Shown in pieces: positions 58,556-61,027 of a DNA stretch of 64,000 nt. The translations under genes were made by a program, and so were the position numbers. The stretch's first letter is position 1; each line of letters begins with the position of its first letter. The notes beneath the pieces were generated by a model. The model ran no database searches, had not been told where the DNA came from, and was given only the letters and a program-made list of their open reading frames with translations. The DNA lies in NCBI RefSeq assembly GCF_054482525.1, contig NZ_CM137006.1; one strand, written 5' to 3'.

Positions 58556-61027
58556 TTAAAAATCAGCCTGACTCGGGATCAGTTTTTGCCAGATAGCTGA
58601 AACGTATTTTGCCTGGTAACGAGCGTCATCAAGTGCATTATGGCGCTCACCTTCGAATGGAATAGCCGTTCTGGCATCGAAGTCTATGGCTTTCCCCAGC
58701 TCAACGATTGTGCGTACATCGCGATCGTTGTAGTAACGCCACGGGCAGGGGATCCCCTGCCGTTCGTATGAACGGCGCAAAATCGTGTTGTCGAAGTTGG
58801 CTCCATTTCCCCAGACCTGAACAAAAAATTCACCGGAGTTTTCGTCGATAAATTCCCGCAATTGTAACAGTGCATCATCTAACGGGATTTCATCGGTCAT
58901 AATGGCAGATTGCGCTTCGCGTGATTGCTTAAGCCACCATTTAATGGTGTCCCGATCAATGACTCCGCCAGCAGTTTCCAGATCGATAGTCTTACTAAAT
59001 TCCGGTCCCATATCTCCGGTTTGCGGATCGAAAAATATTGCACCTATTGAGATGATCGGGGCATCAGGATTTTTTCCCATGGTTTCAAGGTCGATCATTA
59101 GATGGTCACACGTCCTGCTGGTGGATGTGATTTCGTGATGACCGTTCACCTTAATTGGGTGATCTGCCGTCTCGCCAGTTTCATTATCGCTATTGTGATG
59201 CTGATTGCCGCCAGTGTTCTCCTTGTGTGGATGTTCAGCGCCTTCCATTTCCTCCGGATCATCTTCCTGAACTTCAACCTGATACTCTTCATCGAATGTT
59301 TCTTGGTATGTTGCGTCGCCCATCACCGCGCCACAATCAGGGCAGTTGCCGCCGCCGGTCTGACCGCAGGCGGTGCAGACTTTTTCCACTTCCTGTTGCG
59401 CCACTGGTTCAGGCTGTTTCGTTTCTGGCTCGTTTTGTAACGCATTTGTGCTGTTTTGTTCCGCTTTTTGGTAGTTCCGTTCCGATTCATGCTGGTTCTG
59501 GTTCACAGAATCGCGGGTCTGGATCCCCTTAACCCATTTCGGATCATTCGGGTCACTAATCCCTTCAACAAATTCACCACGTGATGCAGCAAGCAACTTA
59601 TCGGCGTCAGGCTGGCTGATATTGGCTGCCTGCATAATTTTGTTTACTTCGTCAGCGGTAACTTTTATCGGCTCTGGTTGTTCTGAATCTTCAGCGGTAT
59701 CTACATTTTGCGGTAAGCCCGTGTATGTGCCATTTTTTCGGGCAAAATATTCTTCTTTTGTGATTTCAGTGGCGCCAGCAGCCAGTGCCTTATCCAGACC
59801 AGAAAGTTTGTTTGCGCGACCGTATTTTTCTCCGTCCTTATCTGCGAAGAGGAAATAGAACGGCCCCTCACGCTCTACAGATGGTTCAGCTTCCGGCGCG
59901 GTTTCATTTTTTGGGATATCAGATACCTCAGTTTCCACTGCATCAGTTTGTGTTTCTGATGACTGGAGAACATCAACAGTGCCCTGGTCTGTTTCTTCAT
60001 TCTCAAACACGCCCTTTGTCGTCAGGTATTCGCAGATATATTTGTTCAGTGCTACGGGATCTTTGTGAATGTCGATCGGACGCTCACGGACAAGGCCAAA
60101 AATAGTTTGGCGGTCGTAGCGAAGGGCATCAGGCTGTTTGCGCATTGATGCCGAGATACGCTTCCAGTCTTCGCGGTCGTTGTCGATAACTTCTTTTTTT
60201 GCCCAGCGATGGATGCTGCCGTCAATGTTTCCGGCATCCACATCACCAGGCCAGAGAGCGTAGGCCAGTTCGTCATCCAGTGTTTTCCATGTCTGCTTGT
60301 ATTCGCGATGAATGGCAGCAATGACCGGGCTGATTTTTCCTGTTGAATTTTCAGTGTACTGTTGATTGGCTCTGGCGCGGGCGAGATCAACAACAGACGT
60401 GTATTTTCCGGTTTCCTTGCGTTCACCTTCGCGACGTTTTTTCCAGATGCGCATCTCTGCCTGAATTTCGGGCCATTTAGCACCAGGAATACATTTATGC
60501 TTAACCCACCCAATGGCGTGCAACTTAAGCTCCGGATACATGGCGTTAACTTCTGGCATTTTCATCAACGCTTCAACGATATGTCCGTCGAATGTTGCCA
60601 TGTCTTCCTGCAACAATTCCTGTGCGCTAATAACCATATCAACGGTGATGTTTTCACATGTGTCGAACTTAACCATGACAGCGTTCTGTACTTCAGGGGC
60701 CAGCTTGTCAAAAGTGACGTTCATCGGATCGGATTCAGTCTCAACCGGGACAAAAGAAGCAGACTCCTCATCCCAGCGGTTTTCCTGCATATATTCAGCA
60801 TCCCATGAATCGAGGGCAGGGCGGGGTATGCCAGGTTTATCCTCGCAGACAATAAATTTATAAGCGCAGTCCTGAGCAGCCGGATAATGTTCCAGGAACT
60901 GCCAGTGAAATTTTGCTCGAGCACGGCGTTCGTCGCCAGCTTCAATGGCTGTGGCTACAGCCACAGTGCCTTCTTCCCTTGTTGCCAGTTCGTCAGGAAT
61001 AGCGGCGCAAATAAAGACTTTACTCAT
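58556..61027 (-). CDS. Prophage exonuclease-family protein: C-terminal DnaQ-like DEDDh 3'-5' exonuclease domain with a long N-terminal region
   Basis: 823-aa ORF; C-terminal motifs MIDLETMG (Exo I), [12 protein letters not shown] (Exo II), [13 protein letters not shown] (Exo III); acidic low-complexity linker; [16 protein letters not shown] resembles a zinc ribbon. Confidence 0.7.
   Translation of the reverse strand: [823 protein letters not shown]

Follow-up and report, generated by a model that had tools for sequence, protein, structure and literature searches.

The 64,000-nucleotide stretch of DNA analysed here (the window; contig NZ_CM137006.1 of NCBI RefSeq assembly GCF_054482525.1) contains a Qin-type lambdoid prophage, whose repressor-controlled early-left (dicBF) operon has as its last gene, just before those for excisionase (xis) and integrase (int), a gene for an exonuclease of 823 amino acids (aa). 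The encoded protein belongs to the RecE superfamily and is modular: a YdfE-type N-terminus and a RecE-type middle region with linker are followed by a DEDDh (DnaQ-like) exonuclease domain, hereafter the head, that replaces the nuclease of RecE. Judging by sequence comparison, the open reading frame (ORF) is the intact form of the Escherichia coli K-12 Qin pseudogene ydfE, ydfE being in turn a fragment of this gene. With a probability of roughly 0.5 we favour a function as a DNA-end-processing 3′-5′ exonuclease of the phage lytic programme, whose biological role could be in recombination or repair, in DNA degradation or in counter-defence.

The gene occupies positions 58556..61027 on the minus strand (the strand of all modules described below) as one frame that starts with ATG in the ORF list and its translation, and a GAGG sequence lies 10-13 nucleotides 5′ of this start. 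The RefSeq protein WP_192854794.1, named "exonuclease," is 100% identical to the window protein over its full length. The C-terminal head (aa 641-823, 58559..59107) belongs to a DexA/Rv2179c-like family of 3′-5′ exonucleases: PF16473 (Rv2179c-like 3′-5′ exonuclease) matches aa 642-813 with an E-value of 1.5e-67 and 227.1 bits, against a cut-off of 27, and is covered from position 2 to 177 of 177 (Pfam). All five DEDDh residues are in place, namely D646 and E648 (Exo I), D746 (Exo II), and H796 and D801 (Exo III, H-x4-D); at motif III the MAFFT alignment was off by four residues, and the H-x4-D spacing was taken directly from the sequence. The only solved structures matched by sequence were the T4 DexA entries 8kel and 8ken (E 1.6e-6 for 8kel). 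The original prediction of a single 823-residue protein with a C-terminal DEDDh exonuclease, a CxxC…CxxC motif and an acidic low-complexity stretch is confirmed on each of these counts, the cysteines lying in CTAC (aa 551-554) and CPDC (aa 562-565), and the segment aa 561-600 holding 14 D/E and no K/R.

The region in front of the head combines two known relatives. Residues 1-256 are 99% identical to K-12 YdfE (b1577, Qin cryptic prophage), while RecE of the Rac prophage aligns through its aa 278-592 with aa 262-627 of the window protein (BLASTP, E 4e-62, 39% identity overall), the identity being high from about aa 470 on, through a conserved motif, a zinc ribbon and an acidic tail. NCBIfam PRK09709 covers aa 246-623 (E 4e-84). 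At the DNA level, blastn against recE gave 78% identity over nucleotides 1425-1867 of the exonuclease gene (aa 475-622), equivalent to recE aa 455-588, and no other match. Since this match stops at recE aa 588 and the RecE nuclease domain is given as residues 564-866 (PMC11611040), the DNA homology ends at the start of the RecE nuclease, and no BLASTP alignment extends beyond RecE aa 592. The PD-(D/E)XK domain (PF12684/DUF3799; RecE aa 615-850) is absent from the window protein in a Pfam search that finds it in RecE, and so is the PF06630 (Exonuc_VIII) N-terminus (RecE aa 2-178), which some other DEDDh variants do have. The NCBIfam RecE equivalog NF007259 scores 283.3 bits against a curated cut-off of 1269 and is matched at model positions 271-600 of 877 only. 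Because of this score and of the missing PD-(D/E)XK/DUF3799 match, the protein is not a standard RecE-type protein. The original prediction had proposed comparison with RecE, naming a standard RecE-type protein as the outcome that would contradict it; the N-terminal and middle parts do match RecE, but the catalytic domain is not RecE's. Its further claim of a ~550-residue N-terminal region of unknown function stands only in part, as it does not extend to the RecE-homologous part and the K-12 YdfE part; for the part of RecE matched by the N-terminal and middle region, the function itself is described as unknown (PMC11611040).

For the conservation of the individual modules, 80 related loci on viral contigs were surveyed, with flanks of up to 6 kb upstream and a median of 1.4 kb downstream. 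The YdfE-type N-terminal region (aa 1-235, 60323..61027) comprises an alpha/beta domain (aa 1-95) and a helical domain (aa 105-205), both of which appear in an AlphaFold2 model of aa 1-345 together with the shared helical module at aa 245-340. The model is locally confident (predicted local distance difference test, pLDDT, 90.5), and its predicted template modelling score (pTM) of 0.44 fits separate domains. The YdfE family domains PF27430 (YdfE_N) and PF27432 (YdfE_C) are precomputed on homologues of 88-94% identity, and are assigned here via these labels rather than by a score on the window protein itself. Comparison of the scaffold fold (the region ahead of the head) returned no informative match, and a profile of the N-terminal alignment (A2) gave only noise against solved structures (E > 0.2). 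The following helical module (aa 236-345, 59993..60322; PF27432 region) is common to RecE and all other head variants according to BLASTP, NCBIfam PRK09709 and module mapping, and has a ratio of nonsynonymous to synonymous substitution rates (dN/dS) of 0.22.

Between this module and the head lie alternating acidic and conserved segments. The first acidic low-complexity linker (aa 346-385, 59873..59992), recognised by composition (12 D/E and one K/R in aa 341-380), has a dN/dS of 0.79 and is nearly unconstrained. It is followed by a conserved short-motif region, GPFYF…GRANKL (aa 386-470, 59618..59872; dN/dS 0.20), which is seen in the relatives P0126 and P0139 and falls within the matches of the "mid" module described below, and then by the segment shared with RecE at the DNA level (aa 471-640, 59108..59617; blastn and BLASTP), with its conserved motif, zinc ribbon and second acidic tail. 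The zinc-ribbon-like motif CxxC-x7-CxxC (aa 551-565, 59333..59377) has the same four cysteines and spacing in RecE, amid almost identical flanking residues, and is kept in 79 of the 80 loci. PHROG 2082 spans the protein from end to end. Short, strongly conserved motifs stand inside otherwise fast-evolving acidic linkers at two places (59618-59872, aa 386-470, and 59534-59593, aa 479-498); the GPFYF…GRANKL region occurs also in annealase-type and fourth-type relatives and the aa 479-498 motif is common to RecE, and both look like docking motifs for some partner. Two relatives depart from this layout. A protein of 527 aa (P0121) is 99% identical over aa 1-345 and lacks approximately aa 386-640, that is the conserved motifs, zinc ribbon and second acidic tail, so that its helical module is joined almost directly to the DEDDh head. 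On a metagenomic prophage (L010, 4242-6695) the gene is apparently split or duplicated, with a 230-aa ORF (Exonuc_VIII and a weak YdfE_C match) preceding one of 564 aa (Exonuc_VIII and DEDDh head).

All folded modules are under purifying selection. Across the 80-locus set, dN/dS is 0.07-0.28 for the folded scaffold modules and 0.19 for the head, whereas the two acidic linkers reach 0.79 and 0.91; 78-80 of the loci retain the catalytic motifs. A chance ORF is ruled out by these values in the folded parts and by an intact 823-aa frame in 75 of the 80 loci. The gene is also abundant: megablast found a match in 4799 of 5426 complete E. coli genomes, with coverage of at least 80% in 3536, at a median of two places per genome among those with any match, and a single protein cluster at 90% identity has 23,183 members. 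Apart from one partial sequence, the homologue search with the full protein returned close E. coli copies only (88-94% identical). Carriers include the phages HannyBb, PhiR42_1, Tritos, mEp460 and Evi and the PPompW prophages of enterohaemorrhagic E. coli, in which the annotation varies between "exonuclease," "3′-5′ exonuclease" and "exodeoxyribonuclease VIII." Upstream, ydfD is found in 78 and dicB in 77 of the 80 loci, and xis and int normally come straight after the gene. No RecT, Rad52-like or PD-(D/E)XK sequence turned up within the surveyed flanks at any of the 80; an annealase is likewise missing beside four more distant DEDDh variants, which again lie just before xis/int, and the complete phage Tritos has no recognisable one, its unnamed ORFs included.

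Comparison of the amino-terminal scaffold places the DEDDh protein within a larger set. An exhaustive HMMER search with aa 1-345 yielded 168 representative clusters, onto which six modules were mapped. The N-terminus of the relatives is of two types, YdfE-type or RecE-type; the helical module ("mid," query aa 257-470) comes next in most long relatives, and the zinc ribbon is present in some. Besides the DEDDh head of the window type, found in 12 long representatives, the scaffold carries as alternative heads a RecE-type nuclease, a Rad52-like fold or a fourth domain. The RecE-type PD-(D/E)XK head occurs in about 15 long representatives, one of which has a YdfE_N front and precedes a RecT-family gene (PF03837, E 2e-36). 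A third type of head, without Pfam match, is found in about 17; its model (pLDDT 83) gave no match in Foldseek, a profile of its tail alignment (A1) against solved structures gave noise only (E > 0.2), the noise in the A1 and A2 searches including AcrIE7 at E ~1.2, and a Sipho_Gp157 gene is its neighbour. The fourth type is limited to four long representatives (P0126, P0214, P0238 and P0257), whose last ~200 aa match no Pfam or NCBIfam family and bear no resemblance to the other three heads, and its gene lies between kilR and xis/int (L013, 5001-7109). A total of 1617 phage records contain homologues of the DEDDh head, most of which stand alone with a length of ~180 aa, and such stand-alone forms suggest that the head is a mobile module which was fused onto the RecE/YdfE scaffold.

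The neighbourhood is that of an early-left operon. Downstream of a CI/LexA-type repressor of 215 aa (HTH_3 and Peptidase_S24 in Pfam; 62875..63522, minus strand), from which a cro-like gene diverges (63619-63846, plus strand; ORF list), the operon starts with ydfC, ydfB and ydfA (62065..62679; ORFs, with PF07151 (DUF1391) for ydfA, the names following the gene order of K-12 and E. coli strain W46). It continues on the minus strand with the small RNA DicF (61672..61723; Rfam RF00039, 76.7 bits against a gathering score of 48), the cell-division inhibitor gene dicB (61309..61497; PF05358, E 2e-39) and, directly upstream of the exonuclease gene, ydfD for a DUF1482 lysis protein (61121..61312; PF07358, E 8e-25). 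Directly downstream follow an excisionase-like gene (DUF4224; 58294-58497, minus strand; PF13986) and an intact tyrosine integrase ORF of 341 aa (57269-58294, minus strand; PF00589), and the prophage ends at a tRNA-Ser (CGA) gene that serves as attachment site (57127..57216, plus strand; ARAGORN, Rfam tRNA and W46 annotation), beside mtfA. The order dicB, ydfD, exonuclease, xis, int is identical in the window, strain W46, phage Tritos and K-12 Qin. This neighbourhood supports the earlier statement that the gene sits where lambdoid phages keep their recombination genes, and likewise the absence of a bet- or gam-like gene from the adjacent 1.8 kb, which is taken up instead by ydfD, dicB, DicF, ydfC, ydfB and ydfA. 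Neither recT, bet nor gam was found in the window neighbourhood; a lambda Red module (exo/bet/gam) was rejected, with no YqaJ-type exonuclease, bet or gam between repressor and int.

By analogy with the lambdoid layout, the immunity region with its repressor and cro-like gene should silence the operon in the lysogen. Immediately behind the repressor gene we noted a terminator-like hairpin (62853-62833, minus strand), followed by a promoter-like site (62808-62780, minus strand) which, as a match to the consensus, is a candidate for the dicB-operon promoter that would drive expression from ydfA through the exonuclease gene, at the position expected for it. No separate strong promoter-like site lies upstream of the exonuclease gene on its strand. 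The gene is 100% identical in W46 and the window, and yet the repressors differ, the 215-aa HTH and S24 protein of the window standing against a 112-aa "LexA family" protein in W46 (L001, 4799-5137), which from the sequences indicates mosaic exchange of the immunity region beside a conserved left operon. In W46 the prophage integrase is frameshifted, and the yersiniabactin island at tRNA-Asn comes next after the corresponding integration site. Outside the prophage, the window holds mtfA as a 278-aa ORF (56236-57072, minus strand), a tRNA-Asn gene (56060-56135, minus strand) and, near mtfA, an ORF of 2895 aa (47135-55822, minus strand) with near-identical internal repeats of ~100 aa and a signal-like N-terminus, presumably similar to the inverse-autotransporter adhesin YeeJ.

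How the protein might act can be outlined from these parts. Upon prophage induction it would be made together with DicB and YdfD, and the head would work as a two-metal-ion 3′-to-5′ exonuclease on DNA 3′ ends, while the scaffold might deliver it to whatever target or partner it has in RecE. The enzyme would then act on the ends of phage or host DNA, in recombination or repair or in DNA degradation, with a polarity opposite to that of RecE and without an annealase of its own. This end-processing proposal follows from combining a head for DNA 3′ ends with RecE-type delivery by the scaffold. A link of the scaffold to recombination is seen in the relative with YdfE_N and PD-(D/E)XK domains that precedes a RecT-family gene, and in full-length RecE, which enhances linear-linear recombination when the RecE nuclease domain alone does not (PMC11611040).

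Several points weigh against this proposal. The 5′ tails left by a 3′-5′ exonuclease are not what phage annealases classically use as substrate; given such tails and the lack of an accompanying annealase, a role in recombination is an analogy with RecE rather than an observation. The short downstream flanks (median 1.4 kb) mean that the survey excludes annealases in those flanks only. Pfam and NCBI names call the domain an exoribonuclease, and literature searches on ydfE, Rv2179c in phage, exodeoxyribonuclease VIII with DicB, and DEDDh anti-defence found no experimental study of this protein. Lastly, EcD, an E. coli homologue of DexA ("HREX") that degrades T4 DNA and DNA with 5-hydroxymethylcytosine (5hmC), spares unmodified double-stranded DNA and protects cells from T4, reportedly serves defence and not recombination (PMC12153337).

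This last example raises the possibility of an HREX-like prophage defence nuclease, with the DEDDh head degrading modified (e.g., 5hmC) DNA of superinfecting T-even-type phages and sparing that of the host. The homology of the head to T4 DexA would fit such an activity, as would the fact that Escherichia is the source of 38% of bacterial DexA homologues (PMC12153337), and DicB of the same operon is reported in a preprint (10.1101/708461) to protect E. coli from phage infection. The window protein is nevertheless not EcD, which is a different, short protein: its primers encode the termini MIDTET… and …TIPETYD followed by a stop, against MIDLET… and …PSQADF with the stop in the head, and the 3′ primer (23-mer) is absent from the viral contigs and the complete E. 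coli genomes. DexA W152, one of the residues proposed to read 5hmC, aligns with Y766, a placement uncertain by a few residues at ~29% identity and with W763 nearby, and the loop with the other, D169, is deleted here, so that the specific features of HREX find no support in the alignment; DexA D90 (Ala in EcD, tetramer-forming), an aspartate whose absence is described as the mark of the defence form, aligns with a retained D718 next to A719, an alignment equally uncertain at ~29% identity. PADLOC-DB 2023, a database older than the HREX paper, gave no defence-family match, and the gene is placed inside a repressed early-left operon rather than at a moron position, with no strong promoter-like site of its own. 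On balance we think it unlikely that defence of this kind is the function.

About as improbable, in our view, is that the protein degrades RNA as a 3′-5′ exoribonuclease, with transcripts of host or phage, small RNAs or nanoRNAs as its possible substrates. Rv2179c, an exoribonuclease of Mycobacterium tuberculosis, did indeed give the best Pfam family its name, many NCBI records of homologues read "3′-5′ exoribonuclease," and the operon itself encodes the processed small RNA DicF. But a DNA substrate is favoured over RNA by the solved relatives matched by sequence, which are those of the DNA exonuclease DexA only, the head takes the place of a DNA nuclease on the RecE scaffold where the alternative heads are DNA-recombination domains, and the stand-alone phage homologues adjoin DNA polymerase or integrase genes. 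Far less probable still is a standard RecE (exonuclease VIII), acting as a 5′-3′ exonuclease on double-stranded DNA together with RecT: the label "exodeoxyribonuclease VIII" in PhiR42_1, Tritos and others and the PRK09709 match reflect the middle region common to RecE, but such a protein is refuted by the domain content and NF007259 score given above, and recT is absent from the window, W46, Tritos and the surveyed flanks of the 80 loci.

It is tempting to extend the end-processing proposal to the whole set of relatives. The scaffold might then be a general delivery platform for interchangeable heads (5′-3′ nuclease, 3′-5′ nuclease, Rad52-like annealase and fourth domain), all aimed at one common target, and the DEDDh form would stand either for reverse-polarity (3′-5′) end resection without a dedicated annealase or for a nuclease that disarms a host system. 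We regard this as a speculative and rather doubtful idea; if true, the role would set it apart from every phage recombination module characterised to date. Public databases (RefSeq, PHROG, Pfam) already contain the gene, along with its domains and distribution, and its architecture is not novel; as one of the commonest genes of E. coli prophages, the copy in the window is no discovery in itself. What the present analysis adds is the correction of the "exodeoxyribonuclease VIII" label, which misnames the catalytic domain and suggests an incorrect polarity, the recognition of ydfE as a fragment, and the interchangeable heads on the RecE/YdfE scaffold. The scaffold that improves full-length RecE in linear-linear recombination is common to proteins with at least four different heads, and its binding target, once found, would account for an entire group of phage proteins and might be useful in the design of recombineering.

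Among known systems, RecE (Rac, K-12 b1350) is the closest in overall plan. Both are large early-left-operon proteins encoded before xis/int, both contain the helical module, a motif starting with AASRGEF(V)(E/D), the CxxC-x7-CxxC zinc ribbon and the acidic tail, and in both the nuclease head begins right after the shared region. They differ at either end, RecE having a PF06630 N-terminus and a PD-(D/E)XK (DUF3799) 5′-3′ head and being followed by recT, whereas in the window protein the N-terminus is YdfE-type and the head DEDDh 3′-5′, and recT is missing. K-12 ydfE shares the operon position after ydfD, but IS2 has truncated it beyond aa ~256 to a pseudogene that lacks the RecE-like linker and exonuclease head, whereas the window gene is complete. 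With regard to the head, T4 DexA belongs to the same DEDDh family and all catalytic residues align; it is, however, a stand-alone protein of 227 aa (as EcD is also stand-alone) and not fused to a scaffold of 640 aa, shares only ~28% identity, and has a surface loop of ~14 residues which is missing from the window head. Rv2179c of M. tuberculosis, the name-giver of PF16473, is of the Pfam family that the window head matches (227 bits), but is described by Pfam as an exoribonuclease that stands alone; it is more distant than DexA, since searching solved structures by sequence did not recover it at E ≤ 1. The stand-alone exonuclease of Salmonella phage 118970_sal3 is 57% identical to the window head and is likewise encoded in the last early gene region before the integrase, but at 189 aa it lacks the scaffold.

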